Origin: Gaiellaceae bacterium
Lineage (GTDB): Bacteria > Actinomycetota > Thermoleophilia > Gaiellales > Gaiellaceae
Assembly (NCBI GenBank): GCA_036501285.1
Contig: DASYAO010000147.1
Coordinates: 1,545-65,544, forward strand
DNA: 64,000 bases
Reading direction: 5' to 3'
Part shown: one piece after another, positions 4,410-64,000 of the stretch
Numbering within the stretch: position 1 is the stretch's first letter
Layout: each line of letters begins with the position of its first letter
Notes under the pieces: generated by a model
The model's input: the letters and a program-made list of their open reading frames with translations, nothing else
Databases searched by the model: none
Told to the model about the DNA's origin: nothing
Program-made: the position numbers and the translations under genes

Positions 4410-4657
4410 GCCCAGACCCTCCCCTTGTCGTGATGAATGTTCGATCGCGGACGCGGCTCCGCACGAGCCGCGATCAACCGGCTACTTCTGTTCGAGCCCT
4501 GCTTCCGTCAGCGAGGCATCGCTCCGTTCGCGGGCGAGCGAACTTGGAACAAAGAGCAGCGCAAGGAGGATGGACGCGGTGACGGCAAGCCGCATGGATG
4601 GACAGCATCGAACAAACTGCCCACCCATGTCAATGGGCCGGCCGGTCCCGAGAACGG

Positions 4658-5734: not shown

Positions 5735-5804
5735 TTCCTCACCCCCGAAGCTGAAGACTGTTTGTCGTGTGCCACTACGGGGCGCGACCGGCGATCGGTT
5801 TTCT

Positions 5805-39458: not shown

Positions 39459-39600
39459 CAACGTAAGCGCTTTCTCGACGGGTGTCACCGATCACTCAGC
39501 ACGCGAAACACAGGTCCCGCCTGGTCTCCTTTTGGGCCTACCTACCCAGAGGCAGAGCCGATCCACGGCGACGTCGGTGGCGAGCTCTGACCAGATCTCG

Positions 39601-39638
39601 GAACGGATTGACCGTTCTAGCCAGCCCCGAGGGGCTGG
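39601..39638 (-). terminator. Two adjacent hairpins 11 nt downstream of the giant ORF stop
   Basis: The first is CCAGCCC-CUCG-GGGCUGG (39621-39638). The second is GAACGG-UCAAU-CCGUUC (39601-39617). Neither has a U-tract. The second could instead be an operator for the downstream LacI operon. Confidence 0.4.
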
Positions 39639-39649
39639 CGGAGGCGGCG

Positions 39650-42600
39650 CTAGATCGAGACGGTGACGCTCTTCGACTGGTTGCTCGTGAGGCCGAGCAG
39701 CGGCTCGGTCTGCGCCGCCGTGAGCGCGTGCTTGCCCGACGTGAGCGTCGTCACCGTCTCCGTCCAGGCCCCACCGACGCAACCCACGGCGCTGCCCACA
39801 GTCGCGGCGCCCTGGTACAGCTGCACCTTGTCACCGGCCGCGCAGGTTCCGTTCAACGTGACCTTCCCGCCGCTCGGCGTTCCGGCGACGATCGTCGGCG
39901 CACCCGGCACCGCGACGCCGTTGACGGTGATGCTCGAGCTCGCGACGCTGACGAGCGTCGAGACCGGGTCGACCTCGGTCGCGTAGAAGACGTGCGTCCC
40001 TGACGAGAGGTTGACCGCAAACGACCAGGTGCCGCTGGCGAGCGTGATCTTGACCTTGCCGATCAGCGAGCCGTCCTCGTAGATGGAAACGGTGTCTCCG
40101 ACGGTGCCCGTGCCGTTAAGGGTGAATGACAGCGGCGTGTTCGCGGGCGCTGTGACGGTCGGCTGAGGCGTCGGCTTGAAGACGTTGACGACGAAGCTCC
40201 TCGAGGGCCTGCTCGCAATGCCGGTGATGCGATCGGTGTCGACGGCGGTCAGCGTGTGCGCGCCGAGCCCGTTCAGCGTCACCTGCAGCGTCCAGTTGCC
40301 GAGGGCGCTCACGATCGCCGTTCCGATCTTCGTCGCGCCGTCGTAGACGGTGATGACCTCGCCGGCCGTGCCGGTCCCCGTCAGCGTCGTCATCGACAGG
40401 GTGTTGACGGGCCCGTTGATCGTCGGCGCCGGCGGCGGGGTCGGCTGGACGTAGAAGGGCGTCATCACGAAGAACTCGTCGCGATCGCCACCCGGCCCGA
40501 AGTCCGGGTCGAGATCGAGGCTGTACGACGCGATCCACGGGCTCGGCGAGACGAGACCCTGCGCCGAGCCGAAGACCGAGAACTGCCGCGCCCACTGGGT
40601 CATCAGCTGCGCGACGAGATCGCCCTCGTGCTCGACGTTGCCGATTCCGTGGATGAGCTGGCCGCCGGCAAGGAGGCACTTGTTGTCGTTGCCGGGGCCG
40701 TCGCAGCTGACCAGGTTGTCGCCGGTGCCGACGGTGACCGTGTCGTCGCCGCTCTGGGCGAAGACGACGTTGCTGCCGTTGCCGGCCGTGATCGTGTCGT
40801 TGCCGCCGGAGATGTCGGTGTTGTGCTGATTGTCGAGCGCGCCGGGCAGGTCGCCCCACCAGCCGCGGTCGTCGACGTCGTGCGGATGCGAGGCCATGTC
40901 GACGACGGCGTTGAGGATGTCGTCGGCATCGGGCTTCGCGTGGGCCCACGGCGGCGTCGGCGGACCGTTCGGAGGCAGCACCTCGTTGGTCGCGACGTCC
41001 GCGAGGTTGTCGCCCCAGACGAGGTTGTTCCCGTCGCCGAGCGTGATCGTGTCGCTACCGAGCGTGACGTTGTCGCCGGGCGCATGGTCGGGTCCGAACG
41101 GCGGGCCGAACGGCGGACCAAAGGCAGGCCAGAGCCAATTGCCGGACCCAGGCGGGCCGCAGCAGGGCCACGGCCACGGACCGGGCCACGGGCCATGCGG
41201 CCCGCACGGGCAGAGCCACGGCCCCGGCCAGACGAGCGGTGCGGGGCTGCCGTCCGGGTTCTGGAACAGCGGCTTGCCGCCGAGCGAGATCGTGACCGAC
41301 GGCGTCTCGACGAGGTAGTCGTCGCCGACGACCAGGTTGTTGCCGCTCGCAGTGTGGCGGAAGAAGTAGGAAATCGTGTCGTCGCCGACGTTCAGATTGT
41401 CGACGTGGTACGTGAGCTCGGTCGCCGGCTTGCCGTTCTTCTGCACGACCGTCGAGATCTGGTCGAGCAGATGGTGCTGGTCGGTCACGAGCTCGCGTCC
41501 GACGAGCAGCAGACCGTCACTGGCGGTGTCGAGCGCGTCGACGATCGCGTCGGACTCGTCGGCGAGCCCGACGTTCGTGAGGATGTTCGGCGCCAGGATG
41601 CTCAGGTCGTCGCCGACGATCGTATTGGACCCGTCTCCGAATGAGATCGAGTCGTCCCCGATGTTGAGGGTCGCATCGACGACCGTGTTCGTCAGGGGCG
41701 GCGCCGGCGTGCCGTCGGTGGCGACCTCGGCCACTTCGATACCGGCAGTGAGCACTGCGAATTCCGCCGTCGCCGTCAGCAGCGTCGCCGCCATCTGCAG
41801 CCCGGTGAGAACGGTCGCGGGGTTCGTCAGGTCGACCGTCTGCGAGAACTCGGTCAGATCGTCGCCGACGATCAGGTTCGTCCCGTTGCCGGCGGCGATC
41901 GTGTCGTTGCCGTCGAGCTGGCCGAGATGGTTCGCGATGTCGGGGACGAAGCTCGCGACCGGCGCCCACTGCGTGCCGCCGGCGCCCGGGATGTAGTTGG
42001 CGGACGGCAGCCCGGCCTCGTCACCTGTCAGCTGCGGGAGGATCGCGTTGAAGGCGTCGACGTCGTCATTCGGCACGACGGACGTCCACGGGAACACGAC
42101 ATTCCCGCTCAGGCCGTCGGCGGCGCCGAACGGACCGCCCGGGCTCTGCAGGAGCAGGCCGTTGGCGACGTTCGGTGCGTTGCCGTCGGAGGTGTCGATC
42201 GTCGCGTTGTCGCCGACGACGGTGTTGTTGCCGTCGCCGACCGTGAGGACATCGTCGCCGGTGCCACCGGACAGGAAGCTGTTGCCGCTGCCGTCGACGA
42301 GGAGGTCGTTGCCGCCCTCACCGAAGAGTTGGTCGTTGCCCTCGCCGCCGTAGAGCTGGTCGTTCCCGTCGGCAGCGAGCTGGATGGTGAGCAGATCGAG
42401 GTTCCACGAGCCGTCGGGGTTGAGGACCGGCATGCCGTTCGCGTACTGGACGGCGAGGAGGAGCAGGCTGGCAGCATCGAGCTGCTGCTCGAGCGCGACG
42501 GTCGGAATCGGATTCGTCCAGCTCGGCGGCGGGCCGGTGAAGGTCAGCGGGATCGTCGCGGTGACCGTGCCGACTTCGAGCAGCTGGATGTTGTTCTGCG

Positions 42601-45600
42601 GCGCCGCGATCGTGCCGGTCGGCAGCGGCTCCGGGCCGCCGCGCGGGGTGACGACGCCGAGGTCGCCGATCAGGATGTCGTTGCCGGCCTCGCCGTAGAG
42701 CGTGTCGTTGCCGAGGTCGCCGTGGAGTTCGTCGTCGGCCGGCCCGCCCCAGATCGTGTCGTTGTCGTTGCCGCCGTAGATCAGGTCGTTGCCGGCTCCG
42801 GTCGGATCGGTGGACGAGGTGATCGTCGGGACGCCGGCGGCCGAGAAGTCGACCTCGCCGTTGTCGCCGACGAGCAGGTCGTCGCCGTCGTCGCCGTAGA
42901 TCGTGTCGCCGGCCGTGCCGCCGAAGACGATGTCGTTCCCGTTGTTGCCATGGATGATGTCGCCGCCACCGTCCGCGGGGTTGGTCGTGAACGCGCGGGT
43001 CACCGACTGGTTCAGGACGCCGTAGCCGGACGCCACCGCTGAGCCGAAGTCGACCTCACCGTTGTCGCCGAAGATCAGGTCGTTGCCGTCGGCGCCGTTG
43101 ATCACGTCATTGGCGTAGCCGCCCAGGATCACATCGTTGCCCGCGCCGCCGTCGATCACGTCGTTGCCGCCGTCGGTCGAGTTCGTCGTCAGGGTGGAGA
43201 CGAGGGTTCCGAGCAGGTTCCCGGCATCCGACCGGTGGACGATGCCGTCGTCGCCGAGGATGACGTCGTTGCCCGGGCCGCCCTGGATCGTGTCGCCAAG
43301 CGGGCCGCCGAGGATGATGTTGTTGCCCGTGCCTCCGGTGATCTTGTCCGCGCCGCCGATGCCCGGGTTCAGCGTGAAGATGTCGAAGTCGCCGGACTTG
43401 CCGCCCTCGTCGACTTGGCCGTTGTCGCCGAGGATGATGTTCGTGCCGGCCGGCGTGAGGATGGTGTCGCCGCCGGTGCCGCCGAGGATGATGTTCGAGC
43501 CGCCGAGCGCGGTGATCGAGTCGCCCGCGCCGGTCGTGCCGTCGGCGTCGGCCGTCTGCACCTCGAAGACGTTCTCGGCCGCTGTGCCGTCGCGGAAGAC
43601 CGTGCCGTTGTCGCCGAGGACGATCGAGAAGCCCGAGCCGAGCGTGATCTGATCTGAGCCGAACCCGCCGAGGATGACGTTGTGCGTGCCGTTCAGGTTG
43701 TCGAGACCGGCCGTGATCACGTCGTTCCCGCCGAGTCCCGGCTGCGTCGTGAGGATGTCGTTCTCGGTCGTGCTGTTCAGCGTCACCATGCCGTTGTCGC
43801 CGAGGATGATGTTGTTGCTGCCGCCGTTGGCCGAGATGTTGTCGGCCCCGACGCCGCCGAGGATCACGTTCGTGCCACCGTTGGAGATGACCGTGTCGTT
43901 GTCGCCGGTGGGCGACGTCGTGTCGGTCGTGGCGACCTGGGTGATCTGCGCCAGCGTGCCGAACCCGATGCTGCCGCCGACGCGGCGGACGATGCCGTTG
44001 TCGCCGAGCACGACGTTCGTGCCTGAGCCGATCGTGATCCGGTCGGCGCCGACTCCACCGATGATGATGTTGCTCGTCAGGTTGGTGTTGCTGTCGGTGC
44101 CGGCCGTGATCAGGTCGTTGCCGCCGAGCGGGCCGGTACACGTCACGTCGTTCGGGTCGTCGGCACACGGCGTCGAGAAGATGTCGTTGTTGCTGGCGTT
44201 GTTCAGGTTCACGACGCCGTTGTCGCCCAGGATGATGTTCTGGCTGCCACCCAGCGCCTGGATCGAATCGGCGCCGACACCGCCCAGAATCACGTTCGTG
44301 CCGCCGTTCGAGACGATCGTGTCGTTGCCGCCGGTCGCGCTTGTCGTGTCGAGCGTGTAGAGCTGGACGACATCGGTGATCTGCCCGAAGCCGATGTTGC
44401 CGGCCTTCCGATGGATGAACCCGTTGTCGCCGAGCACGATGTTGTCGCCGGAGCCGATCGTGATCTGATCGGCGCCGAAGCCGCCGACGATGATGTTCGT
44501 CGTCGCGTTCTTGTTGTCGGTGCCGGCCGTGATCACGTCGTTGCCGCCGAGGGACAGTTCGGTCGAGGAGATGTCGTTCGCGACGGCGTTGTTCAGGTTC
44601 ACGATGCCGTTGTCGCCGAGGATGATGTTCTGGCTGCCACCCAGCGCCTGGATCGAGTCGGCGCCGACACCGCCGAGGATCACATTCGTGCCGCCGTTCG
44701 AGATGATCGTGTCGTTCGCCCGCGCCAGGTCGACGACGTCGAGCGTGTAGATCTGGACGACGTCCGCGATCGTGCCGAAGCCGATGTTCCCGGCGTTGCG
44801 GTGGACGAAGCCGTTGTCGCCGAGCACGATGTTGTCGCCGGACCCGATCGTGACCTTGTCCGCGCCGAAGCCCCCGATGATGATGTTCGTGGTCGCGTTC
44901 TGGTTGTCGGTGCCGGCCGTGATCACGTCGTCGTCGCCGAGCGACAGATCTGTCGAGTAGATGTCGTTCGAACCGGTGTTGTTGAGGTTCACGACGCCGT
45001 TGTCGCCCAGGATGATGTTCTGGCTGCCGCCCAGCGCCTGGATCGAATCGGCGCCGACGCCGCCCAGGATCACGTTGGTGCCGCCGTTCGAGACGATCGT
45101 GTCGTTGCCGCCCGTGAAGCTCGTCGGGTCGGTCGTGTTGATCTCGATCACGTCGGCGATCGTGCCGAAGCCGATGTTCCCGGCGTTGCGGTGGACAAGA
45201 CCGTTGTCGCCGAGCACGATGTTGTCGCCCGACCCGATCGTGATCTGGTCGCTGCCGACACCACCGATGATGATGTTGACCGTCGCCTTGGCGTTGTCGG
45301 TGCCCGCCGTGATCACGTCGTTACCGCCGAGCGGGCTCGAACAGGTGAACGTCCCGTCGCCGCACGGGCTGGAGAAGATGTCGTTCGACCCGGCGTTGTT
45401 CAGGTTCACGACGCCGTTGTCGCCCAGGATGATGTTCTCGCTGCCGCCCAGCGCCTGGATCCCGTCGGCGCCGACGCCGCCCAGGATCACGTTCGTGCCG
45501 CCGTTCGAGACGATCGTGTCGCCGTCGCCCGTCGAGCCCAGAACGTCGGTCGTGAACACCTCGACGATCTGGGCGATCGTGCCGAAGCCGATTTCGCCGC

Positions 45601-57600: not shown

Positions 57601-60600
57601 TCACGGTCACCGTCTGCGGCATGAACCAGTCGTCCGGCGTGAAGACCAGGGGCGTGCCGCCGAGCTGGCCGTTCAGGAAGATGTTCTGTACGCCTTCGAG
57701 CAGCTGGGACTGGCTCGGCGGCGTCGCGGACGCGGTCACGATCACGTTCTTCGTCGGCGCTTGCGTGAGCACGACCGTGTAGGTGTTGACGACGAGGCTC
57801 TGCAGGGTCGGAGAACCGTTCTCGAAGACCTGCAGCGGCGCGATCTGCGTGATGACGACGCCCGGCGCGTTCGCGTCTCCGACGTTCGCCGAGATGCCGG
57901 ACACCGTCGCGTTCGCGTATGCCGCAGCGTCCGCCGCCGACACGAGCTGTGTAATCAGGCCGCTGTGGCCGTTCAGGCTGTTGCTGACGACCGTGATCGG
58001 CTGGTCGGTGCCGGTGCCGCCGATATCGAAGGTGTCGCTGCCCTGGCCGCCGACGAGCTCGAGGTCGACCGTCGCGCTCGTGCTCTGGACGTAGAAGGTG
58101 TCGTTGCCGGCGCCGCCGTCGACGATCACCTTCTCGACGTTCGTGAAGCTCACGTTGAGGCCGGCGCCGAAGATGCCCTGGTCGGTGATGACGAACGTGT
58201 CGCCGAAGTCGGTGCCGATGACGACGATCGTGTCGAAGCCGCCGCCGCCGTCGATGTGCACGGGGGCGTCGACCGTGTAGCTGATGAAGTCGTTGCCGGT
58301 GCCGCCGTTGATGTTCGTGAACGGCGCGTCCGGATCGTTCGGGTTGACCTTGACGAACGCCTGAACCGTGAACGTGTCGTCGCCGTCCTGGCCGTAGAGG
58401 AAGACGTTCGCGAGGTTGTGGTAGACGGTGAACGTGTCGTCGCCGTTGCCGCCGTAGATCGTCGTGGCGAAGCTGACTCCGTTCGACAGGAAGCCGTCGG
58501 TGGTCTGCGTCGTGGCGAAGTAGTCGGCAGGCAGAAGGCCGTTCTCCGGGTTCGTCCCGTCACGTGCCGAGGCGTAGAGCTGGGCGACCTGGAAGTTGTC
58601 GTTGCCGTCGCCACCGAAGACCGTCGTCGGCACGAGGTTGTCGTCGAGCAGGAAGTTGTCGGTCGCGATGCCACCGAAGACTGTCAGGCCGCCGTTCAGC
58701 GAGCCGTCGTAGTTCACGCGCTCGACGACGCCGGTCAGGATCGGCTGGCCGTTCGCGTCCGTCCCGAACGCCGCGACCATGCCCGTGCCGGCAGCCTGGT
58801 TCGCACGGAAGAGGTAGTACGTCGGCGCGTTCGTCCCGAAGATCTCGAGCTGGTTCACGTCGCTCGTCGTGATCACGTCGGAGACGTTGATCACGGTCTG
58901 CGCGACTCCCGTCGAACCGGCCTCGCCGGTCAACCCGATCTCGTACAGGTCGCTGCCGGTGCCGCCCTGCAAGTTGAGCGTGCCGCCGATGCCGTTGACG
59001 AACGTCTCGTTGCCCGACTGGTCGTAGTTGACCGCGATCAGGTCGTTGCCGTTCCCGCCCTGGATCGTCGCAGTGCCGCCCGTCGAGCGGATGTAGATCG
59101 TGTCGTCGTAGTTGTTCAGCACCGGCGTCTGATCGCCGCCGTAGACGTTGAGGACGCTGCCGACGGGCGTCGAGTCGACGTAGAAGTTGTTCTCGCCGTC
59201 ACTCAGGCGCACGGTCAGGTTCTTGAAGTTCGAGTAGGAGATGCCGGCGGCATCCATGCCGAGCCCGAAGACGCTGCTCTCGTACAGCTGGCCCGCGCGC
59301 GTGCCCGTCTGCGGCGTCAAGTCGTTGCGGTCGTAGAGCTCGAGCGTGTTGTTGCCGCCGGGGCCGCCGTTCAGGCTCAGCAGGCCGCCGCCCTGGATGC
59401 CGTTGAGGGTGCTTCCCACCTTCGGGTCGGAGCCGGCGAGGAACGCCGTCGTCGAGCCGATGCGCACGTCGTTCGTGCCGCCCTGCGCGTTGACGTTGGT
59501 GGTGAACCCGATCGACTGGACCTCGACGTCGTCGTCGCCGCCGCCGGTGTTCACCGTCGTCGTCGTCCCGCTCGCGGTGCTCTCGACGATGAAGGTGTTG
59601 CCGGCGTTGCCGAGGTTCACCGTCAGCGTCTGGAGGCCGCTGTAGTCGAGCATCGAGGTGGGCGAGCCGAAGATGCCGCCGAGCTGGGAGCTCGAGAGGG
59701 CGCCGAAGTTCGACGCCGGATCGGTCGTGTCGTCGACCAGCACGGTCTCGGCGTCGTTTGCGTTGCCGTTGACCGTCAGCGTCGAGTTGATCAGGTTCGC
59801 GTTGCCCTTGACGTTGCTGAACCCGAGCGGCGCCGGCCAGAAGCCCGCCTCGCTGCCGACGTAGACGGTGTCGGGGCCGGCGGTCGAGTCAATCGTCGTC
59901 GGGCCCTGGATCGACCGCACCGCTACCTCGTTGTCGCCGGTGCCCGTGACGACGGTGGTCGAGCCGGTGTGGGCGACGGTGTCGTCGATCGTCGTCTGAT
60001 CGGCGCCGTTGCCGAGGTTGAGCGTGACTGAGCCGAGACCCCAGTAGACGATGTCGCCGGTCACGCCGCCTGCGCCGCTCGTCGACAGGCCGGTGATGGT
60101 CAGCTGGTCGACGGCCTGCGTCTGCTGCACCGGATCGGCGTTCGTGTAGTCGACCTGCTGGCCGCCCGTGTAGAGGATCGGCTCGCTCCCGAGGGTCAGG
60201 TCCGGCGCCCCGGCTGCGTACGTGACCTCGGTGCAGGTGTTGCCCGTGCACGTGTAGTCGGGCTCACCGCGAGCGTGGAGGACCGGGCCGGTGTAGGTGA
60301 CGGTGATGCTCTCGCCGAAGCTCGCGCTGTTCTTGAGTGCTGACTGCGTCGGGTTGAGCACGAGCGTCGTGCCGTTCGCGCCGCCGATCGTGAAATCGGT
60401 GCCCAGCGTCAGCTTCGTCGTGCCGATGAAGACCTGCAGCGTGCCGGCCGCAGGCTTCTCGTTCAGCGTGATCGTCTGCGTGACCGGCTGCGTGGTGCCC
60501 TTCGGCGGGTTCCAGTAGAAGCTCTCGCGCACGGTCTGCGTCGTCTGCGCCGGCGTGTAGACGATCACGTTGCCCTTCGTGTCGAACTGAAGCGCGGAGC

Positions 60601-63600
60601 CGGCGCCGAGGATCGGCTGGCCGGCGACGACCGCCTCGCTGCCGCCGTAGAGCACGATGTCGCCCGCCGCATGCGTCGCCGCGCGCTCGATCTCGAGCTT
60701 CACGGTGACCGTGTTGCACGTCTTGTCGGCGATGCAGGCCGCCGTGACGCCGGCGCCGAGCGTGACCGTGCCGGCGCTCGCGTCGAACGAGTAGTCGTTC
60801 GGGTCATTCGGCAGGAGGTAGATGTTCGTGCCGTCGTAGACGAGCACGAAGACCTGGTCGTCGGCCTCGAGCGTCTGGTTGCCGGTCAGCGTCAGGACTG
60901 CGCCCGCGAGGCTCGTCAGCGTGAAGGACGGTGCGGTGAACGACGAGGCGCCGATCGCGACGAACGAGCCGTCCGCCTGCTCGAGGTCGTAGACCTGCTG
61001 GCCACGGTCTGCGATCTCGGCCTGGCCGGGCTGGAACGTGAACGGCGTGTTGCCCGTGTAGACCGGGTTGCCGTTCTCGTCGACGACCGGCTCGCCGCCG
61101 AGCTCCTCGACGTTCGCTCCGCGCTGCTCGACGACCGTGTCGCAGGCCGTGTGCAGCATCGGAGCCGTCGTCGTGTACGTGATGATGTTGCCGTTCGGGT
61201 CGAGCAGCGGCCGGCACGTGAACAGGTCGACCTCGGGATCGCCGATCGTGTGGAGCATCGGCTGACCGGTGAGCGGGTCGAGCACGGGCTCGCCGCCGAA
61301 GTAGTGCTCGGCCGTCATCGTCTCGCTGCCGCCCGGCAGGCCGTCGGAGTTCAGCACGGGCCGGCCGTTCTGAAGCGTGTCGACCGGAATCGTGTAGCTC
61401 GTCAGGTTCGCCGAGATGTCGTCCGCCGAGCCCGTGTCGTCGATGATCAGCTTGTCCTGGCCCGAGGTCACGCTCGAGATCGAGTCCGCGGTCTGCAGGA
61501 ACGGCTTCAGCTGCGACTCGAAGATCGGCACGAGCGAGACCGAGTTGGTCGGGAAGATCCGGTTCAGCGGATCCGGGGTCGAGGGGTCCGCGGTCTCGCG
61601 GCCGGACGGGTCGATGAAGAGCTTGCTCGGGTTGTCGGCCGGGGTGAAGTCGGTCGTGTAGGCCTTCGTGTTGATCGCGCGCACCTGCACCTCGTCGATC
61701 CCCCACGTCACGTCGTCGTTGTTCAGCTGGCCGACGAAGCCGAGTGTCTCGCTCGACGTCTGCGCCATGAACTGGAAGCTGTACGAATGCCAGCTCGTGT
61801 CGTTCACCGGCTTGTTGAAGCCGTGGACGAGGTCGGTCGAGTTGAAGGTCGGCGTTGCCGAGGCGCTCAGGTAGACGCCGAGCGTGACGTTGTTCGCATC
61901 GCCGTACTGCGACAGGAGGTTCGCGTACGAGAAGTCGACCTGGTAGATCGCGCCCGGCACGAGCCCGGTGATCGTCTGGCTCATCGTCGGCGTCGCGCCC
62001 GGGAAGTTGTCGAGGAGGTAATAAGCGCTCCCGCTCACGCCGCCTGTCGACTGCCAGCCGCCGGCAGCGGCGATGACCGATGTCGTCCAGCCGCCGCCGT
62101 TCGTGCCGCCGCCGGTGCCGTTGGCCGGCACCTGAGTCGCGAAGTTGCCGTCGGCGAGCAGGTTTGCGCCCATCGACTGGAAGACCTGGTCGAACGCCGG
62201 GTCGACGTACACCTGCTGAGCGCCCGTCGCGCCCTTTGTCGACGGCAGGATCACCGGCAGGTTTGCGACGTGCGTCGTCGGGTCGGTCGCGAGCGTCGTC
62301 TCGTTGCCCTTGGTGTCCATGTAGATGTTGACCGCGCCCGTCGCGCCGAACGCCAGCAGCCTGATGTCCTGGACACCGGTCGACGGGTCGGTCGTGACGT
62401 TCCCGAGCGTGTCGATGTAGAGCGGCGTCGACCCGTTCGTCGTCGAGATGTCTTCGATCGCGATCGGCGGCTTGGTCGTCGTCGGATTGCCGTTCGCGTC
62501 GAGGTAGAGCGGCACGGCCCCGGTCGGCGGGTTGGACGTGAACACCTGGATGTCCTGGATCCCGGTCGCGTTGCTCGTCGTCGGCTTGCCGCCAGCGTCG
62601 AGGTAGAGCAGAACGGCGCCCGTCGTGCCCGCGGGCTCGACCAGGATGTCCTGGGTGCCGGTGTTCAGGATCGTCGGATTGCCGGCGCCGTCGAGGAAGA
62701 GCGGCACCGCATTCGGAGTGCCGGAGGACACGATCGTGATCGTTCCGTCGCCCGCCTGAATCCCGTACTGCTGGATGCCCGACAGCTGGATGCCGAGGAG
62801 CTGCTCGCCGACGACCTGCTGGCCCTGCTGCTGCACGCCGTACTCCGGCACGCCCTCCTGCTGGACGTTGACCTGGACGAGATTGCCGCTGCCGACGGCG
62901 AATGTGATCGTGCGCGTCGTGTCCTTGCCGCCGTTGGTGGCGTCGGTCGCGGTGCTCGAGAAGGTGAGCGTGCTCAGCACTTGCTCGTAGGCGGCAAGCG
63001 ACGCGATGCCGGAGAGCTCGAGCGAGCCGCCGTTGTAGGTCTTCCCGATCGGAACGCCGGGCGCGATCGTCACGTCGAGGACGTCGCCGGCGAGGAAGCC
63101 GTCGGTGATGCTGACGTTGGCGCCGCCGATCGTGCCGCTGACCGGATCGGCGATCGTGACACCGGCTCCGATGGTGATCGTCCCCGGCGTCGCGGTGATC
63201 CCGGTGAGCTTCGTCGAGTTGCCGCCGGCGGCGACGGCGATCGACGCCTCGTCGACGACGCCGGCCTCGACGTCGATCGTGCCGTTGGGCTCGTTCGGGT
63301 CGGTGCAGGTCGTGCCGACGATGCAGAGGATCGGAACGAAGTTGCCCTGGTAGTACGGCTGCCCGTCCGGTGACGTTCCGAGCTGCTGGCCCTGGACGAC
63401 GAGGATCGCGTTGCTCGGGTTCAGGAAGAAGTTGACGAGCGTCTTCTGCGGGTCGGGTAGAGCCGCGATGCCCTGCTGGGTGAGCGCCGGCGAGTTGGTC
63501 GTGAGCGCGTCGGCGCCGTCGATCGTGAGACGGCTCAGGATCCCGCTCAGGTCGGCCGCGCTCGACGAGACGGTCGTCGTGTCGGTACCGGCGCCGCCGA

Positions 63601-63991
63601 GGATCGTCGTCGGCGCGCCGATGCCCTTGATCGTGAAGTTGTCGTCGCCCGTGCCGCCGTCGAGCTCGACGGTCGGCGCTGCGAGCGTGCCGGTGGCGTC
63701 CTCGGTGCAGACCTGGTTCGAGATCGTGGTTCCCTTGCAGAGCGCCGTGTCGTCGACCGTGAAGTTGGCGGCCTGGTTCGAGAAGCGCAGGTCGACGTGC
63801 TCGATCCCCTGCAGCTCGACCCCGAAGTACGGGTTCCCCTCGACGTCGGTCTGGCCGGCGGGGTTGATCCCGAGGCCCGTGCTCTCGAGGCTCAGGTAGG
63901 TGTCGGTGAGGTTCCCGTCGGGGACGAAGATCGGCGTGCCGTCGGGCTGCTCCTGGCCGCTGTCGGTCATGCGCGGCACCTGGCGCTCCAC
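39650..63991 (-). CDS. Giant (at least 8,113 aa) mosaic repeat protein, probably a surface or extracellular beta-helix/beta-roll adhesin-like protein. The 5' end may lie beyond the window.
   Basis: The frame is uninterrupted from TAG 39650 to the window edge. Codons at 63992-64000 are also open, so 63991 is only the first in-window start (GTG). Coding-like composition, in-frame repeats and recognisable modules (Ig-like, PPC-like, jelly-roll, GGxGxD turns) run throughout. Confidence 0.85.
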   Translation of the reverse strand: MERQVPRMTDSGQEQPDGTPIFVPDGNLTDTYLSLESTGLGINPAGQTDVEGNPYFGVELQGIEHVDLRFSNQAANFTVDDTALCKGTTISNQVCTEDATGTLAAPTVELDGGTGDDNFTIKGIGAPTTILGGAGTDTTTVSSSAADLSGILSRLTIDGADALTTNSPALTQQGIAALPDPQKTLVNFFLNPSNAILVVQGQQLGTSPDGQPYYQGNFVPILCIVGTTCTDPNEPNGTIDVEAGVVDEASIAVAAGGNSTKLTGITATPGTITIGAGVTIADPVSGTIGGANVSITDGFLAGDVLDVTIAPGVPIGKTYNGGSLELSGIASLAAYEQVLSTLTFSSTATDATNGGKDTTRTITFAVGSGNLVQVNVQQEGVPEYGVQQQGQQVVGEQLLGIQLSGIQQYGIQAGDGTITIVSSGTPNAVPLFLDGAGNPTILNTGTQDILVEPAGTTGAVLLYLDAGGKPTTSNATGIQDIQVFTSNPPTGAVPLYLDANGNPTTTKPPIAIEDISTTNGSTPLYIDTLGNVTTDPSTGVQDIRLLAFGATGAVNIYMDTKGNETTLATDPTTHVANLPVILPSTKGATGAQQVYVDPAFDQVFQSMGANLLADGNFATQVPANGTGGGTNGGGWTTSVIAAAGGWQSTGGVSGSAYYLLDNFPGATPTMSQTITGLVPGAIYQVDFSYANLLSQYGDANNVTLGVYLSASATPTFNSTDLVHGFNKPVNDTSWHSYSFQFMAQTSSETLGFVGQLNNDDVTWGIDEVQVRAINTKAYTTDFTPADNPSKLFIDPSGRETADPSTPDPLNRIFPTNSVSLVPIFESQLKPFLQTADSISSVTSGQDKLIIDDTGSADDISANLTSYTIPVDTLQNGRPVLNSDGLPGGSETMTAEHYFGGEPVLDPLTGQPMLHTIGDPEVDLFTCRPLLDPNGNIITYTTTAPMLHTACDTVVEQRGANVEELGGEPVVDENGNPVYTGNTPFTFQPGQAEIADRGQQVYDLEQADGSFVAIGASSFTAPSFTLTSLAGAVLTLTGNQTLEADDQVFVLVYDGTNIYLLPNDPNDYSFDASAGTVTLGAGVTAACIADKTCNTVTVKLEIERAATHAAGDIVLYGGSEAVVAGQPILGAGSALQFDTKGNVIVYTPAQTTQTVRESFYWNPPKGTTQPVTQTITLNEKPAAGTLQVFIGTTKLTLGTDFTIGGANGTTLVLNPTQSALKNSASFGESITVTYTGPVLHARGEPDYTCTGNTCTEVTYAAGAPDLTLGSEPILYTGGQQVDYTNADPVQQTQAVDQLTITGLSTSGAGGVTGDIVYWGLGSVTLNLGNGADQTTIDDTVAHTGSTTVVTGTGDNEVAVRSIQGPTTIDSTAGPDTVYVGSEAGFWPAPLGFSNVKGNANLINSTLTVNGNANDAETVLVDDTTDPASNFGALSSSQLGGIFGSPTSMLDYSGLQTLTVNLGNAGNTFIVESTASGTTTTVNTGGGDDDVEVQSIGFTTNVNAQGGTNDVRIGSTTAFLAGSDPKVGSTLNGIQGGGLLSLNGGPGGNNTLELYDRNDLTPQTGTRAGQLYESSVFGLGMDAAGISYSNFKNLTVRLSDGENNFYVDSTPVGSVLNVYGGDQTPVLNNYDDTIYIRSTGGTATIQGGNGNDLIAVNYDQSGNETFVNGIGGTLNLQGGTGSDLYEIGLTGEAGSTGVAQTVINVSDVITTSDVNQLEIFGTNAPTYYLFRANQAAGTGMVAAFGTDANGQPILTGVVERVNYDGSLNGGLTVFGGIATDNFLLDDNLVPTTVFGGDGNDNFQVAQLYASARDGTNPENGLLPADYFATTQTTDGFLSNGVSFATTIYGGNGDDTFTVYHNLANVFLYGQDGDDTFTVQAFVKVNPNDPDAPFTNINGGTGNDFISYTVDAPVHIDGGGGFDTIVVIGTDFGDTFVITDQGIFGAGLNVSFTNVEKVIVDGGAGNDTFYVQSTSATVDLELVGGQGSDTFDIGGTGTDQPITVVSNSLNGHSGLITQLVSAADAAAYANATVSGISANVGDANAPGVVITQIAPLQVFENGSPTLQSLVVNTYTVVLTQAPTKNVIVTASATPPSQSQLLEGVQNIFLNGQLGGTPLVFTPDDWFMPQTVTVTVAAKPDGVATGDRSVTIQHTVVEGSTAVDGDPYDGIPVQTVAVDVIDADTASVVVAPYDPTANAGKGGVEDQLLVSEGVSTNQPGFLPASDSYAVVLTKQPVGPVTFEATSDGDTQISADGLTWGTVVDLTFDDTHPWNMIQLVYVRATPGSTVKGIHFSRISNAIDPADSGAFLGVTPGDVASGLANAVAGDPTGQFQTSVSGNEVTVTGPAFNATWTAGDSGMLTVDSNASTHAYQGTVTAPITGTPTTGDTWTLNLDGSPFVYVVPPCLDSTQSCPSQTTTLMNSDIATALAKLVSQSGVYVARASGSNILVQRRDNTELMVTLAYQPNGGTAAGAPVFGTLGSSWSKLTLAVSLNANQNVPIGETWTITLDKGSVFNPATAVLYSWVAGANSSTLVSPEDVEVTDDTTGDVLVVQPTGSTNVIEPTGFVVVGDGFVEELANSGCTVSTTPVNCFNGTIGTSQINSINFHDSISTAQDLDLGTWGLNPDPNILGATDVQHITVDATGTGANDYYKFDVTPAMVAAIKATGTPATFDVDNGQYFLNGTPIWASRLLLYDSTGTLIASGAGHSLTSQGAGGSASELDDFLQYAFSTPGEYYIEVSGWLYANAIPNGVTYQLQVSAPGHLIAGFVFAPAPVQSNSTNNTLGTAQSIEPLGQDGQPNGADFYNFFNTSAGDAQFGGTIDWQTPYAEIQGSGDGSFDVFSFQVTQDMLTPTSESVSSSTGATGPFYTQVGLHLTGTVHAGDIWTLGLRDHDYQYMAGANDTLATVAQALANLIQTGPVSGYTVTVQNAGPAGADLNISNTTLGFNLIGQTVSGAVQLAHAADTITTSTEPLQSDNTTPVDFTSAEVDLAGSANPGEVWTLTVGSTAHQCLVGPGGESLTGLAMCLAAAAGGTPSGTSIVLTNLGGTPVSFSVAGSAPQGYATITGTPVAGEVPTVPWTSETFALPGSPLVGEQWTVSLTPAAGGTALTFSAPAADTSGTDLATALKAAFHGTGYTVNSVGAALTVSSQTPFTGTIAVKASGAASTGTAFSHTITVTSGSADTWTATLSDTNGPIATLNNIAGAADAGAVTQNLASAINGVSGFTAKVDGDSVTVTRASGPDFTIVISPTAGGTATPGPATAQVVSLEQYVGDSVTLTLDGTPYTATGANAGADATTIANAIGSAYTVALAPGMPTLVIVKLGGSAISASLTVTAHNGSISSGGTYALPSVASGDQLTLTLSQSGATTETETATTASALAADFTGDFTVTNSNGTLTITGTKGTGSITVALEVVEQLPANQAALVETLSGNAVAGDTWSVSVTGGVTGSATYTVDDGSTGDTLDTIAAALQSQLKSSTIVSQVGANAVITITAVGGASFTTSAGAVSGGTASVSNAATTTLALSAAAINADDIWTVTVDGTPYHYPVAGDTTATIAHALALAIDAASGYTAFSSGSTLYVTKVAGGTLNTSFAVTRNPNAPNATVSGTPSIVWTQDVQLQPGLPGFVSGQTWTVTVGGTPYTVTTTEAAPNPIAALLAKLHSDFMVSAGTGGDDLVFKTPAAPALISVTELRIASSLDSGATEDTRGHYQTATVDLTGSYVDNENWVLTIDGATYTYQVLPLPTSEEALRTLGTIAQGIASLVHTAFLTGKSAVDAVGTTDGTLTLTDESKVDPFVFTLAERNGSAEGSFHLADASDVTGAINVAAVNPAFAWLVSLFPFLAPIFSQNQSLGFTALPVLELFDANNNLLATSTCNLSGGSRTCTDTWSSFGANINVGKPSNALDPLTDPLIDYVFTQPGTYKLEVAANVTWDQCTDGGQLIFGFFCTAGVRNTFKTNGIQQVPTGMNYQLFVSLQGHPTNPNQFSFVGSEVTIVSGTGVGEQATISGYDPERQLFTIAGPGWSTAPDITSRFEIANNLSDDPAYQTQLTKAPDSGTYQVVLTAPLTGSQTVTIDVVPQATPTYDSAEAFDPNSNFGQNDFIQVGVSTPQAVFELAGTPKTGEVWTITLGSASYSYTVQDGDTLTTILNALAAKIPTADYTITVNTTTETLVVHAKSGSFRAGFQITGDTQGTATVTGTDTSSSVTLSGTPALNEVWTLNVDGTAYSYTVQSGDSLQDVANELEGMPAPGVYNAGVGGTSTAPVISVSRRDGKPTSVYLTVSTEGAATASVDASSISVGLGGLPAMNETWTLTLDSSHVYSYTAIYGDTLASIAQAIASKIDVKTYNVGSSGRVITISRVGGGQVAARFSITTDSQGGATVTPQLVFDSTDWDEFQSVTVVGVPDFTVDGGDALSFPPLPNTTDQIRGPVTIVGGNSAQTQSLLTSPLMLPGETNLPLADGTLTCAVGGTPCAGTNGPGTNDAGDATITDLNATNVSATDGERPGFDPRMNSYSYTVEFLDGSAAGETLNVGSVSQDILSLESATGIPVNLTFDGKQLSGQAIFYGTPVVSAAASALKWVSADVAFSGVPNLGDTWELTVDGHTYSVEVTTANDIASLLAEALLEQIPGAFNAQLRSGLLGDSDLLLSRPGNPFDVSFTIVPKTNTEVGGGQGIVSGTPACVMAPTETTECGLDWTLASYRFTTAGGSTDQWALTGGTGTDSFSTTGNGGGTIGDLTNGLAAGVTSTYLPLVSGTQVTFTTGWDVDQNGQPETPSAGDPYHVAPLNPNTTVNETQQVDTLNVYDTADPNNLNGTLTESTITGLGMGGDTVIGGLSIPGGISYSALESVNIYLGKGNNTFTIDGTSQATTSVVSGNGNNSINVETVSGHTTVDTGSGSDTVTVGDGGNVDRIAGLLTIDTGTGNDTLVVDDSKDPSSTTGTLTDTTLTGLGMPTVAEEQTVTITAASGNFELLAPDLGSTSTVTLTYPTSLTPAALAASAAAMAQALDTLYGLTGISVTATSASNQVTYTIVFAGDGAGKHFDQLQWVRTWTLTLPAGQTQPFVITAPGFGDATLSPNPTAPDVQAALQKVFGISGITVSGTNNAFEVVVGGVGYSLDLSKLQGVGTAIAGSTLKAAVGATASVQTALVDDGTRSPSLDNVQTIDLTPDATGNLAGSFELHFVLPNSQGVLQDYITGPLPVGISASALLASVSAILNPNNTNPALPFTDNVAVEQHGSSYQIVFRGAFAKASIAYIDTSGLTKGTATVSNQESGIQYYGANTLDVDLGNGNDVFNVQSTTAGTTTNLNTGGGNDHVYVSSQANASVGDLPDHLTGVTDGILGTLAIDEGAGTGQSLMVSDEGAATCATVEAHVGTTCPTIDLETGGVTGLAPAAITFGASHGGDLGGGITFWTGFGADTVTVNGVHSTPGVTEITTLNTGLGDDKVTANLDSTKGGFFVADLQGAYESYQALTQPVFYGNYNTTADVVTASLDGTLLSSDEYTLIPSLNAVALTISPAAGDYVTVNDKHKTTQEFVYDGTSHKLTNPYSAGDGLLVTVNGSPVAATIANDGTIVFSGAAPTLQALVLVQITHIYSQTFTFPQTAPADDDVFDGSGSSLPLVVFGGAGNDTLTGGKGNDILVGDRGRIDFVDNPSAVTFDDQGNVTIGSTAGVEAIRGGGGLGDDSNIPVSNNFVVLSVSQGIDGTDTIVGNGGSDILIGEGASDSVYGDQQPGVTLAGTPGNNVELGDSGAVLAAAGIPIFVTSTFPSLGAPDTVDGGTGNDVIIGGAAGDTIVGSSGYDVLLGDNGSVALNNVSGPNDIKSIAIDQGGNDTITAGDGVSIVIGGFGSDTLTAGTGDAVILGDNGEVDRGPAPSETILSVFTTDTTSATGAVDCITSAAGDNVILGGVAGDFISANGGSQNIILGDNGVVNLNNAGSNDIFSTELSLGGDDTITAGIDNEDATSNVIVGGFGNDKITIGSGDNVVLGDNGYISRTGGKIGFGSLADIVSVTTLDTTSATGGDDTIVSNGGTNVILGGVGADGIQALGGSQNIILGDNGVVNLNNAGNNDIYSVPCADGTFTCTTPLGGNDVIAAGVDNANASSNVIIGGVGMDSITLGSGDNVMLGDNGRVERVGGEIGFGTIAQIVEVFTTDVLGSTGDGDTIVSNGGTNVILGGVGADGIQALGGSENIILGDNGVVNLNNAGSNDIFSSPCGDGTFTCSSPLGGNDVITAGTDNAKATVNIIIGGVGSDQITIGSGDNIVLGDNGLVHRNAGNIGFGTIADVIEINTTDPTSFTGGNDTIVSNGGTNVILGGVGADSIQALGGSQNIILGDNGVVNLNNTGSNDIYSTDLSLGDDDVITAGTDNQNATTNIIIGGFGADKVTIGSGDNIVLGDNGFVHRNAGNIGFGTIADVVQIYTLDVVDLARANDTIISNGGTNVILGGVGADSIQALGGSQNIILGDNGIVNLNNAVANDISSTELSLGGNDVITAGTDNKNATTNIIVGGFGADQITIGSGDNIVLGDNGFIHRKAGNIGFGQITDVVQLYTLDTTSATGGNDTIVSNGGTNVILGGVGADSIQALGGSQNIILGDNGVVNLNNASNNDIFSTPCADDPNDVTCTGPLGGNDLITAGTDSNTNLTSNIIIGGVGADRITIGSGTNVVLGDNGIVRRVGGSIGFGTLAQITQVATTDTTSPTGDNDTVISNGGTNVILGGVGADNISANGGSNNIILGDNGMVTLNSTTENDILTTQPGLGGNDVITAGLDNLNGTHNVILGGFGSDQITLGSGFSIVLGDNGTVFRDGTAAENVFEVQTADADGTTGAGDSITALGGSNIILGGTGGDTILTPAGTNIILGDNGQVDEGGKSGDFDIFTLNPGIGGADKITGGTGNNIILGGPLGDTIQGGPGNDVILGDDGIVHRSDAGNLLGTLVSTLTTNSTDGGNDVIDGGAGNDVILGGYANDVINGADGNDLIFGDNGEVDFGSAVASGYGVLNQSVTRAFTTNPADGGGDIIHGNNGNDIVFGGTAGDTIYGDDGDDLLVGDNGEVDFSAAGVPTITSSTDPTGAGNDLIYGGNDNDTIWGGPADDELHGDLGNDTLYGEAGNDILIGDLGVVTPRGGPEPLPTGTIAAPQNNIQLLEVGTVTATIPLTFTGPPPSWTNPIPTVALEQQLDAASLLLLAVQYANGMPVLNPDGSWNLDLLTIQLAADGNDQLYGGEGNDQLFGEGGNDLLVDGSGNSFLSGGTGDDVLTVGDGNNTVVGDNATIDTSDGNAPNVANGLLLQSPGGPFGAADGLSGNVVFPWTSVVPNDDVDAFNAILPQLTGDEAGLPSANYIPGAGGTQWAPVASFVPDIANHLGQLDGNDTIAAGNGTNLIVGDDLTEFSQTVDLTNPATVLTGLQMAATLLTATAEFAVLTAGIEVAEVATDGTPAPPLTNTVVDATLNIGDDSISFGDGSNTIVGDDLSILAPNILTNVGLADESDAIVDALDTASDGLLLVGRELVTDQHHLLDQISTVVQKNGKPATELTYHVDNLNVGDDTISYFFRHTASGNNLVVGDDYLVETPSVTISLGGKPLFQNPDGSPAPLVWPGPWLCPCGPHGPWPGPWPWPCCGPPGSGNWLWPAFGPPFGPPFGPDHAPGDNVTLGSDTITLGDGNNLVWGDNLADVATNEVLPPNGPPTPPWAHAKPDADDILNAVVDMASHPHDVDDRGWWGDLPGALDNQHNTDISGGNDTITAGNGSNVVFAQSGDDTVTVGTGDNLVSCDGPGNDNKCLLAGGQLIHGIGNVEHEGDLVAQLMTQWARQFSVFGSAQGLVSPSPWIASYSLDLDPDFGPGGDRDEFFVMTPFYVQPTPPPAPTINGPVNTLSMTTLTGTGTAGEVITVYDGATKIGTAIVSALGNWTLQVTLNGLGAHTLTAVDTDRITGIASRPSRSFVVNVFKPTPQPTVTAPANTPLSFTLNGTGTVGDTVSIYEDGSLIGKVKITLASGTWSFAVNLSSGTHVFYATEVDPVSTLVSVASSSITVNGVAVPGAPTIVAGTPSGGKVTLNGTCAAGDKVQLYQGAATVGSAVGCVGGAWTETVTTLTSGKHALTAAQTEPLLGLTSNQSKSVTVSI
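39653..40440 (-). repeat. Three C-terminal Ig-like (Big-type) domains of about 85-90 aa
   Basis: The three domains are LTGTGTAGEVITVYDGATKIGTAIVSALGNWTLQVTLNGLGAHTLTAVD, LNGTGTVGDTVSIYEDGSLIGKVKITLASGTWSFAVNLSSGTHVFYATE and LNGTCAAGDKVQLYQGAATVGSAVGCVGGAWTETVTTLTSGKHALTAAQ. The protein ends ...SKSVTVSI. Confidence 0.65.
43450..46700 (-). repeat. Eight tandem coding units of 363-426 bp (121-142 aa) built from degenerate RTX-like nonapeptides
   Basis: The landmark gttcaggttcac (or a close variant) recurs at 43775, 44201, 44591, 44981, 45398, 45815, 46205 and 46568. The encoded core is GGNDTIVSN GGTNVILGG VGADSIQAL GGSQNIILG DNGVVNLNN. Confidence 0.8.
50180..56850 (-). repeat. Sixteen copies of a module of about 93 aa (G-[DE]-x-W-T-[LIV]-T-[LV]-D-G ... 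Y-x-Y-T-V-x-x-G-D-T-L-x-x-I-A)
   Basis: The Trp codon of the motif lies at 56836, 56491, 55348, 55003, 54715, 54448, 53686, 53398, 53104, 52822, 51628, 51352, 51073 and 50214. Two W-less copies lie near 54175 and 53935. Spacing in the core array is 240-345 bp. Confidence 0.75.
62170..62720 (-). repeat. Six tandem repeats of about 30 aa (G-A-V-P-L-Y-L-D-A-x-G-N-P-T-T) near the N-terminus of the giant ORF
   Basis: The six copies are AVPLFLDGAGNPT, AVLLYLDAGGKPTT, AVPLYLDANGNPTT, TPLYIDTLGNVTT, AVNIYMDTKGNETT and QQVYVDPAFDQV, read from the track translation. Confidence 0.6.
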
Positions 63992-64000
63992 CAGCTGGCC

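Follow-up and report, generated by a model that had tools for sequence, protein, structure and literature searches.

We investigated what kind of protein is encoded by a single giant open reading frame (ORF) that fills the right-hand part of a 64,000-nucleotide stretch (the window) of the Gaiellaceae bacterium assembly GCA_036501285.1 (contig DASYAO010000147.1, positions 1,545 to 65,544), and how such a protein would leave the cell and act outside it. Gaiellaceae (Thermoleophilia) are actinobacteria that abound in soil and the subsurface, with hardly any cultured members. Our analysis indicates, with moderate confidence, that the ORF is the C-terminal, cell-distal half of one giant Sec-exported, Ca2+-stiffened extracellular fibre or adhesin.

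Translation of the minus strand over positions 39650-64000 gave 8,116 sense codons without an internal stop, ending with TAG at 39650-39652, while the remaining two minus-strand frames contained 223 and 32 stops over the same span. The ORF listing gives this frame as 39650..63991, with 8,113 aa read from a GTG. G+C content at codon positions 1, 2 and 3 was 0.60, 0.50 and 0.94 (window G+C, 68%), and because a third-position G+C content (GC3) of 0.94 is typical of high-GC coding sequence, this is the true coding frame. Long antisense ORFs inside the giant gene, for example 53990..60031 (2,013 aa), are by-products of base composition. The frame was also present in a second assembly, a JGI metagenome contig of 49,541 bp (sample 3300036780) that carries nine identical window proteins. 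This contig differed from window positions 23935-44915 by 8 mismatches in 20,981 bases (99.96% identity) and thus represents the same population, assembled independently. Its gene call for the giant ORF has 8,229 residues and runs off its own contig end; the frame is unbroken in both assemblies, and therefore at least 113 further codons exist past the window edge. These results bear out the claim of an earlier model-made note drawn from the letters of the window (the sequence-only reading) that one giant ORF lies open at the edge. As for the differences themselves, four of the eight fall within 100 nt (window 29890-29990) in a glucoamylase-like gene, and the 5.3 kb of the giant gene common to the two assemblies contain one, at 43415.

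An artefact could arise if the assembly of the repeats were chimeric or collapsed, if separate genes had been taken for one, or if the frame belonged to a pseudogene in decay; the sources are short-read metagenome assemblies, the sequence contains repeats, and the long-read orthologous contigs are riddled with frame changes. However, the internal DNA repeats of the giant gene (period 390-417 nt, about 6 copies) are only 74-79% identical to one another, which makes repeat collapse or chimerism unlikely. The same unbroken frame in two assemblies, the GC3 of 0.94 throughout, the colinear domain order kept by two orthologues, and a frame that is open over the whole locus in 20 of 21 checked loci of the protein family described below, complete isolate genomes included, all speak against an artefact. 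Moreover, the frame changes of the nanopore contigs sit at differing places, and some are bridged by another contig (L007). We therefore consider this explanation extremely improbable.

We then examined the window edge. A homology search with aa 1-1300 (residues counted from the window edge) returned just 13 relatives, of which the best were a Gaiellaceae metagenome-assembled genome (MAG) fragment and ENA metagenome fragments with 42-53% identity. A scan of genome contigs found no relative of aa 1-400, and the metagenome scan gave two loci only, both from populations other than that of the window. In the fragments P0003-P0007, the motif GQLV(E/Q)R(Q/T)VPRMT(D/E), which corresponds to window residues 1-14 (GQLVERQVPRMTDS), lies 340-630 residues in from their own N-termini, and these N-termini differ from one another. 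Two orthologous contigs were colinear with the window over aa 1-4005 and aa 529-5505, with 33-60% identity overall. The one that covers aa 1-4005 (ENA ERZ26871208 contig_164072, nanopore, 93 kb; loci L001 and L002) is 45-60% identical to the window over that range, and upstream of the equivalent of the window edge its plus-strand GC3 stays continuously at about 0.95 for more than 23 kb, with frame jumps. L007, which is 85% identical to contig_164072, spans 6.8 kb of this region, adjoining the window-edge equivalent on its upstream side, in a single open frame of 2,272 codons; its lone frame change lies inside a repeat, with no start or stop signal near. We read the frame jumps in contig_164072 as sequencing errors, because L007 covers 6.8 kb of the same region in one frame. 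The true N-terminus had been suspected to lie outside the window, and both homology and orthologue coding signal do run past residue 1. In contrast, the in-window candidates GTG 63991, GTG 63979 and ATG 63970 are not starts, since homology continues through that residue.

Two N-terminal fragments, P0087 and P0088, were found with a chimeric query joining the orthologue upstream repeats to window aa 2371-3300 and aa 7290-8116; no mid or C-terminal orthologues were among the matches listed, which Ig-repeat adhesins dominated. P0087 (3,802 aa, 3' end cut) belongs to the Gaiellaceae MAG GCA_036511815.1 (locus L003) and is colinear with contig_164072 from its residue 1589 on, with 51-57% identity, and locus L004 is colinear as well. 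The upstream part of the orthologues measures about 25.9 kb, or about 8,600 codons, and adding the 8,116 codons of the window extrapolates to a whole protein of about 16,700 residues (about 16,000-17,000). In the long-read orthologues L001, L002, L004 and L089, frame changes split the giant gene into dozens of called "genes", including spurious antisense ORFs and products with Arg-rich garbage tails. Because frame changes break the orthologues in this way, the giant family is mostly stored in protein databases as false fragments with false starts.

The orthologues also provide the N-terminus. L003 and L004 share the segment ...R(F/V)RGAR-(H/Y)LLAAVGL(L/I)G(M/L)AVPYASG-FAAF, which reads as a positively charged n-region and a hydrophobic core of 13 residues, with Ala at -3 and Gly at -1. 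This segment is signal-peptide-like, with the layout of a Sec signal peptide, and is followed by a stretch of about 400 residues in which Pro, Thr, Ala and Ser abound, then by a Big_1 domain and ~120-aa repeats, instead of a retention-like domain, which was not found in the N-termini of L003 and L004. The sequence-only reading had seen no recognisable export signal in the giant protein; this reflects truncation, since the conserved signal-like segment is present at the N-termini of both orthologues. In L004 (2430-2700), the segment is preceded by a GTG start with a GAGGGGG Shine-Dalgarno sequence. In L003 (9800-10060), the annotated ATG falls inside the conserved segment and is probably not the correct start. 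The sole canonical in-frame start upstream of this ATG is a TTG within the hydrophobic core, and an ATC with GAGGGGG before it stands at about the position of the L004 GTG; the true L003 start may be non-canonical or mis-sequenced.

The in-window half itself looks extracellular, because of its cysteine pairing, its acidity, and its lack of transmembrane-grade segments and LPXTG-like motifs. A partner no more than 25 residues away was present for 40 of the 41 cysteines; by chance 9.0 +/- 3.5 would be expected, and none of 5,000 random trials exceeded 23. This close pairing is the pattern of local disulfides. The window protein contains 805 acidic (D+E) and 182 basic (K+R) residues. No transmembrane-grade hydrophobic segment was found in it (maximum 19-residue Kyte-Doolittle mean, 1.74), and the motif L[PA]xT[GAS] was absent across its whole length, with a C-terminus reading ...NQSKSVTVSI. 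Motif and hydropathy scans of all 8,116 residues thus agree with the earlier statement that the protein has neither an LPXTG motif nor a transmembrane anchor.

We next analyzed the domain architecture by scanning the window protein against Pfam and NCBIfam in ten overlapping 900-aa pieces with E up to 1. The Pfam family HemolysinCabind (RTX) matched strongly (1.1e-32, well above the cut-off) over aa ~5600-7300 and again at aa 7730-7765, and 32 strict GGxGxDxUx motifs were counted. Apart from sub-threshold DUF642 and Big_6/Big_3_5 matches, no other accepted family match was obtained in the ten pieces, and the NCBIfam RTX-toxin models scored far under their cut-offs. In PDB sequence searches, RTX blocks of CyaA and relatives were the only matches, and aa 1-4000, 2596-2790, 2000-2340 and 7840-8116 gave none. 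Self-comparison revealed four repeat systems, namely about 8 RTX super-repeats of 130-140 aa that span aa 5740-6830 (window 43511-46783) and reach 85% identity to one another, a divergent ~93-aa periodicity (aa 2340-4700), three paralogous GxGxD stretches (aa 1260-1600, 4780-4950 and about 5270), and three Ig-like repeats at the C-terminus. The features are as follows, from the N-terminal side onward.

39650..64000, minus strand: the giant ORF, 8,116 codons plus TAG, 5' end cut by the window edge, the C-terminal part of a longer gene.
62141..64000, minus strand: lineage-restricted region aa 1-620, with GGxGxD-type turns and a Q-rich stretch; its homologues are Gaiellaceae-like fragments only.
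aa ~425-605, minus strand: ~30-aa repeat "AVPLYLDxxGNxT", 5-6 copies, within the aa 1-620 region.
61631..62143, minus strand: DUF642-like jelly-roll (galactose-binding-like), aa ~620-790, with a below-threshold PF04862 match.
60101..61633, minus strand: aa ~790-1300, no family match, kept only in the close relatives P0001 and P0002.
57971..60103, minus strand: ~700-aa block of GxGxD turns, aa 1300-2010, conserved across phyla, with a paralogous copy just upstream of the window edge in orthologues.
56876..57973, minus strand: beta-rich domains without a family match, aa ~2010-2375, which the sequence-only reading had labelled cadherin/Calx-like, kept in some Verrucomicrobiota and "Bifidobacterium"-labelled MAG relatives.
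49976..56875, minus strand: zone of the ~85-aa alpha/beta module, aa 2376-4675, delimited with an iterative hidden Markov model (HMM).
Module starts within this zone (aa): 2379, 2497 (fragment), 2875, 2990, 3086, 3176, 3270, 3351, 3429, 3526, 3624, 3717, 4115, 4207, 4300 and 4586.
Interleaved domains without a family match in the module zone: aa 2596-2790, 2790-2871, 3806-3995 and 4393-4582.
47201..49975, minus strand: aa 4676-5600, two more GxGxD solenoid-like stretches (paralogous to aa 1260-1600) around FEL modules.
aa ~4961-5260, minus strand: three related "FEL...ALQ...YxIVF" modules; the module HMM matches aa 5048-5119.
42131..47200, minus strand: RTX (HemolysinCabind) beta-roll zone, aa 5601-7290, including the ~8 super-repeats.
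40451..42130, minus strand: post-RTX region, aa 7291-7850, with degenerate RTX-like turns and helical inserts and a last short RTX run at aa ~7730-7765.
41051-41245, minus strand: W/P/C-rich stretch, aa 7586-7650, in the post-RTX region.
39653..40450, minus strand: three Ig-like domains of BapA/Big_3/Big_6 type, aa 7851-8116, ending ...SKSVTVSI.
39600..39649, minus strand: GC-rich hairpin GCCAGCCCC-TCGG-GGGCTGGC, read from the sequence directly after the stop codon, without a T-run.

The sequence-only reading had recognized several of these elements. The GGxGxD/nonapeptide RTX repeats were confirmed by the Pfam match, the strict motifs and the super-repeats at aa 5740-6830, and the three C-terminal Ig-like domains are supported by Big_6 and Big_3_5 scores just under their cut-offs at aa 7870-8116 and by 30-35% identity to BapA/Bap/LapF adhesin repeats. 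For the proposed jelly-roll domain, the DUF642 (PF04862) match at aa 672-773 points in the same direction and stays below threshold (23.6 bits vs a cut-off of 27). The labels "PPC-like" and "cadherin/Calx-like" remained unconfirmed by Pfam or PDB sequence search, which neither confirms nor excludes them. The Trp/Pro/Cys/Gly-rich stretch at aa 7586-7650 ("WPGPWLCPCGPHGPWPGPWPWPCCGPPGSGNWLWPAFGPPFGPPFGP") contains the sole four-cysteine cluster in the window protein.

The ~85-aa module is the main in-window repeat, and Ig-like domains in the window are limited to the three at the C-terminus, with further Ig-like modules in the upstream part of the orthologues. The iterative HMM gave 17 copies of about 80-93 aa, one more than the 16 modules of about 93 aa counted in the sequence-only reading. 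AlphaFold2 modelled the module from 16 in-window copies with a predicted local distance difference test (pLDDT) of 92.7 and a predicted template modelling score (pTM) of 0.84, as three strands, one helix and four strands. Foldseek returned no PDB match for this model at E 1e-3 or better; the nearest matches, at template modelling (TM) scores of 0.58-0.66, were surface-exposed insertion domains of phage tail-sheath/nozzle proteins and flagellin D2/D3. A profile search of 1.84 billion representative proteins yielded 1,026 matches, 400 of them at E 1e-10 or better; some carry as many as 29 copies, with lengths reaching 7,829 aa. The ten module proteins that we checked had no Pfam domain beyond the same partial match to the start of LysM. 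Because the profile matches 1,026 proteins and the ten checked carry no Pfam domain save this one, we regard the module as a real, recurrent and unnamed repeat domain. An identity with LysM (PF01476) was considered and rejected, as the match covers profile positions 1-15/20 only ("YxVxxGDTLxxIA") and no stretch passes alone; furthermore, the complete LysM domain has about 43 residues in a beta-alpha-alpha-beta order, whereas the modelled module has seven strands and one helix.

Module copy number varies between orthologues. A run of ten modules at 52586-55387 is flanked by aa 2790-2871 (window 55388-55633) and aa 3806-3995 (52016-52585), which may be the halves of one domain split by a ~930-aa insertion. 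This idea is half supported, as only the C-terminal half aligns with the intact copy at aa 2596-2790 (BLASTP E 4e-4). Split domains of this kind project the ligand-binding domains of RTX adhesins (PMC12077191).

The second recurrent element is the block at aa 1300-2010. It aligned over its full length with giant ORFs of Verrucomicrobiota, Desulfuromonadales, Burkholderiales and several Actinomycetota, with 30-44% identity and E down to 1e-149, and had no Pfam or NCBIfam match. Its profile gave a single and weak PDB match, through six short repeated stretches, to 3p4g (E 0.0023), the Ca2+-bound beta-solenoid of the Marinomonas primoryensis adhesin, which is built of ~19-residue turns xGTGNDxuxuxGGxuxGxux. 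The block is thus probably a Ca2+-bound beta-solenoid, and the repeated match gives some support to the beta-helix-like scaffolds proposed from the sequence alone. As for the further claim that the modules could not be named, most of them still match no family library, but the ~85-aa module and aa 1300-2010 proved to be recurrent families.

A third conserved element lies outside the window. The upstream part of the orthologue holds a beta-rich core of about 1,000 aa (L002 11072-14170), about 9-12 kb upstream of the window-edge equivalent, with the motifs FKWPSWLPI, LSASVTG, GGILKLD, LSELGPL, NDFxAGVEFF and VLFLADIPDQV. We found 72 homologues of the core (P0014-P0085) in Planctomycetota, Verrucomicrobiota, Proteobacteria and Actinomycetota, all of them partial and unnamed, and neither the core nor its homologues matched Pfam or NCBIfam. 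Species-representative genomes were scanned with a 361-aa core sub-alignment. The core is encoded in at least 176 species genomes, and identity across phyla was 57-72% (80 loci kept, relative to a Pirellula query). The family extends over Actinomycetota, Proteobacteria (Burkholderiales, Rhodobacterales), Planctomycetota, Verrucomicrobiota, Elusimicrobiota and Rokubacteria, and its isolate carriers include Solirubrobacter taibaiensis, S. phytolaccae, Oryzobacter telluris, two Microbacterium strains, Rhodobacter flavimaris, Yoonia litorea and Roseobacter sp. GAI101. In 20 of the 21 family loci checked, the frame was open over the entire locus (21 kb in 18, shorter in the others), which corresponds to ORFs exceeding 7,000 aa in which the core is flanked on each side by 10 kb or more. 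In 45 of the 80 loci, a counterpart of aa 1300-2010 follows the core at a distance of 6-9 kb on its downstream side.

These findings place the window protein, as judged from sequence, in a cross-phylum family of giant proteins, because its colinear orthologue carries the core and the protein itself carries the second conserved block at aa 1300-2010. In contrast to these shared parts, aa 1-1300 and the region beyond about aa 2350 are restricted to Gaiellaceae-like relatives. Family members are named "hypothetical protein", "large repetitive protein" or "beta strand repeat-containing protein" at NCBI, and no description of the core family or of Gaiellaceae giant proteins was found in the literature searched, so the family appears to be undescribed. 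Two relatives from other phyla, P0058 and P0083, start with a different leader (motif "LEPRLLLS" or "LELRQMLDG"), which is presumably typical of large planctomycetal proteins. The family would therefore combine one conserved core with lineage-specific export leaders. The AlphaFold2 model of the core (pLDDT 81.6, pTM 0.50) consists mostly of long antiparallel hairpins with one helical insert. Foldseek matches of this model to large beta-barrels (FimD, LptD) and ApoB had TM-scores of 0.10-0.17 and were rejected as homology.

The conservation of the core could also indicate a structural component of the envelope or matrix, such as an S-layer-like, sheath-forming or Ca2+-sequestering scaffold, with the core mediating self-assembly. 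An identity of 57-72% across phyla in at least 176 species is more constraint than the usual variable adhesin shaft shows, the core sits in ORFs of more than 7,000 aa, and the protein is extremely acidic with many predicted Ca2+ sites. In addition, a conserved gene pair stands directly upstream of the giant gene in L003 (7478-9768) and L004 (96-2370), encoding a secreted protein of about 460 aa (weak DUF3108-like match) and a lipoprotein of about 297 aa (lipobox ...AAGC), which could be assembly or tethering partners. On the other hand, the single copy per locus, the lineage-specific variable distal modules and the copy-number variation are hallmarks of adhesins; no S-layer (SLH) or cell-wall-binding domain was found in the Pfam/NCBIfam scans of the window protein, and the core model lacks a convincing structural homologue. 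A structural role of this kind therefore seems unlikely to us. Somewhat less doubtful, though still tentative, is the possibility that the family is a distinct, horizontally spread cell-surface apparatus with a conserved mechanistic core and lineage-specific distal ends, its members exceeding 7,000 residues and perhaps reaching about 17,000. If so, the role of the core would be self-assembly, membrane or wall insertion, or a mechanical function, and the family would be more than another adhesin.

Under the favoured reading of a Sec-exported, Ca2+-stiffened fibre, export would begin at the N-terminal signal-peptide-like or signal-anchor-like segment that is seen in the orthologues and presumed for the window protein. 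The ~400-residue Pro/Thr/Ala/Ser-rich linker would then cross the wall. Beyond it, a long shaft would consist of the ~120-aa repeats, the ~1,000-aa beta-rich core, Ig-like modules and GxGxD solenoid blocks, which are seen in the orthologues and, from the second solenoid block onward, in the window. The acidic chain would bind Ca2+ in its RTX beta-rolls and solenoids, and about 20 local disulfides would staple it, giving a stiff fibre; the sequence features are those described above, and Ca2+ binding and stiffness are predicted from the RTX family. The strings of alpha/beta modules, the jelly-roll and the three terminal Ig-like domains would form binding surfaces at the far end. By analogy, the protein may serve as an adhesin or cohesin whose targets would be particles, polymers or other cells.

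It has been documented that RTX adhesins carry a retention domain at the N-terminus, Ig-like extenders in tandem, a region of varied make-up that binds ligands and includes split domains, and, at the C-terminus, an RTX beta-roll beside the type I secretion signal, with the genes of the type I secretion system (T1SS) nearby (PMC12077191). The window protein resembles the Gram-negative RTX adhesins (LapA of Pseudomonas fluorescens, MpIBP of Marinomonas primoryensis, AhLap, FrhA, SiiE and BapA) in being a single, very acidic, megadalton-scale chain with RTX beta-rolls, a probable beta-solenoid of GxGxD turns, and small, beta-rich extender modules in tandem. Also in common are Ig-like repeats with homology to those of BapA/Bap/LapF, diverse putative ligand-binding domains that lie towards the C-terminus, and a possible split domain. 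However, it lacks the C-terminal order of RTX plus T1SS signal (the signal itself was not scored), no T1SS, LapG or LapD genes lie near it within the regions examined, and its host is an actinobacterium. The orthologues start with a Sec-type signal and a Pro/Thr-rich linker, most modules are unrelated to BIg extenders, and the protein is 2-3 times longer than LapA or AhLap. It therefore appears to work like a Gram-negative RTX adhesin by a different export and tethering route; we read it this way because the design is shared, yet the C-terminal RTX order, the neighbouring T1SS genes and the N-terminal retention domain that define an RTX adhesin were not found in the regions examined, nor was an LPXTG anchor.

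A classical T1SS RTX adhesin of the LapA/MpIBP/SiiE/BapA kind, secreted C-terminus first through an ATP-binding cassette (ABC) transporter, membrane fusion protein (MFP) and outer-membrane factor and held by an N-terminal retention module, would account for the RTX nonapeptide repeats, the weak similarity to the MpAFP-type solenoid and the BapA-type Ig-like repeats. The family also occurs in diderm phyla, e.g. Burkholderiales, Rhodobacterales and Planctomycetota, and Gaiella stains Gram-negative (PMC6741124). But no T1SS genes (ABC, MFP, TolC-like) were found in the 39.6 kb downstream in the window, nor in 10 kb (L003) and 2.5 kb (L004) upstream of the orthologue starts. RTX repeats stop at aa ~7290 in the main zone and at aa ~7765 in the last short run, after which about 350 residues, three Ig-like domains among them, lead to the C-terminus. 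Together with the Sec-type N-termini of the orthologues, which have no retention domain, and the RTX-toxin models far under their cut-offs, these results make a T1SS adhesin distinctly improbable, more so than a structural scaffold.

Several observations nevertheless weigh against a Sec-exported fibre or adhesin. The identity of the core across phyla is unusually high for an adhesin shaft and hints at a function beyond a sticky fibre, and the RTX zone is not at the extreme C-terminus, unlike that of classical RTX adhesins. The window protein's own N-terminus is unseen; its signal and total length were extrapolated from orthologues whose identity to it is 33-60% over the shared parts. Finally, Gaiella occulta stains Gram-negative (PMC6741124), which leaves more than one envelope type conceivable for the host and some room for a T1SS route.

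Giant proteins of other bacteria were also compared. The Gram-positive giants, for example Giant1-5 of Apilactobacillus kunkeei (PMC12863079), and LPXTG megaproteins such as Ebh share a Sec-type signal (with the orthologues), very long repetitive extracellular chains, and presumed roles in aggregation and attachment, but the window protein has no LPXTG or C-terminal anchor, is dominated by RTX/GxGxD scaffolds, and is unrelated to them in sequence, with no Pfam domain in common. The giants of Omnitrophota and other groups are likewise longer than 10,000 aa, metagenomic and fragmented by assembly; theirs, however, have many transmembrane regions and SecA-DEAD-like and enzymatic domains, none of which occur in the 8,116 residues here (bioRxiv 10.1101/2023.11.21.568195). 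Proteins of at least 10,000 aa have been reported to be frequent in Actinobacteriota (bioRxiv 10.1101/2023.11.21.568195), which makes the window protein less exceptional than the earlier remark on the rarity of proteins of this size implied.

Size alone is therefore not new, and the sequence itself is already deposited. What is new is the recognition of the ORF as half of a far longer gene, the probable Sec-type entry route in its orthologues, one unnamed module with a confident fold, and the evidence for an uncharacterised, deeply conserved cross-phylum family. A gene of about 50 kb would occupy over 1% of a genome such as that of Gaiella occulta, the only sequenced relative, which measures about 3 Mb, and must therefore pay for itself. 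The findings suggest that the RTX-adhesin design, in which Ca2+ stiffens a megadalton fibre and the tip varies, also occurs together with an apparent Sec-type entry route, and the cultured carriers of the core (Solirubrobacter, Microbacterium, Oryzobacter, Rhodobacter and Yoonia) would allow genetic testing. As regards annotation, gene calling routinely turns MAG fragments of such genes into numerous separate "hypothetical proteins" whose starts are false.

In the gene neighbourhood, the GC-rich hairpin at 39600..39649 is probably the transcription end; a consensus scan found no T-tailed terminator on the minus strand. Downstream of the hairpin lie genes for a LacI regulator, a GH39 glycosidase, a family-5 solute-binding protein, two permeases, two ATPases and the glucoamylase-like protein, and past this last gene come unrelated metabolic genes. 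No secretion, sortase, usher or glycosyltransferase gene was found within the 39.6 kb downstream. The sequence-only reading had described the same setting, with no secretion or anchoring gene following and a LacI glycan operon downstream, and the neighbours (LacI, GH39 and an ABC sugar/peptide importer) fit this description. On the other side, in L003, the conserved gene pair is preceded by a MoxR AAA+/DUF58/VWA cluster and a PQQ-propeller protein of 920 aa. For the LacI-family regulator (38418-39488, minus strand), three sources gave three starts (356, 346 and 342 aa), and the longest ORF leaves only about 160 nt to the stop of the giant gene.

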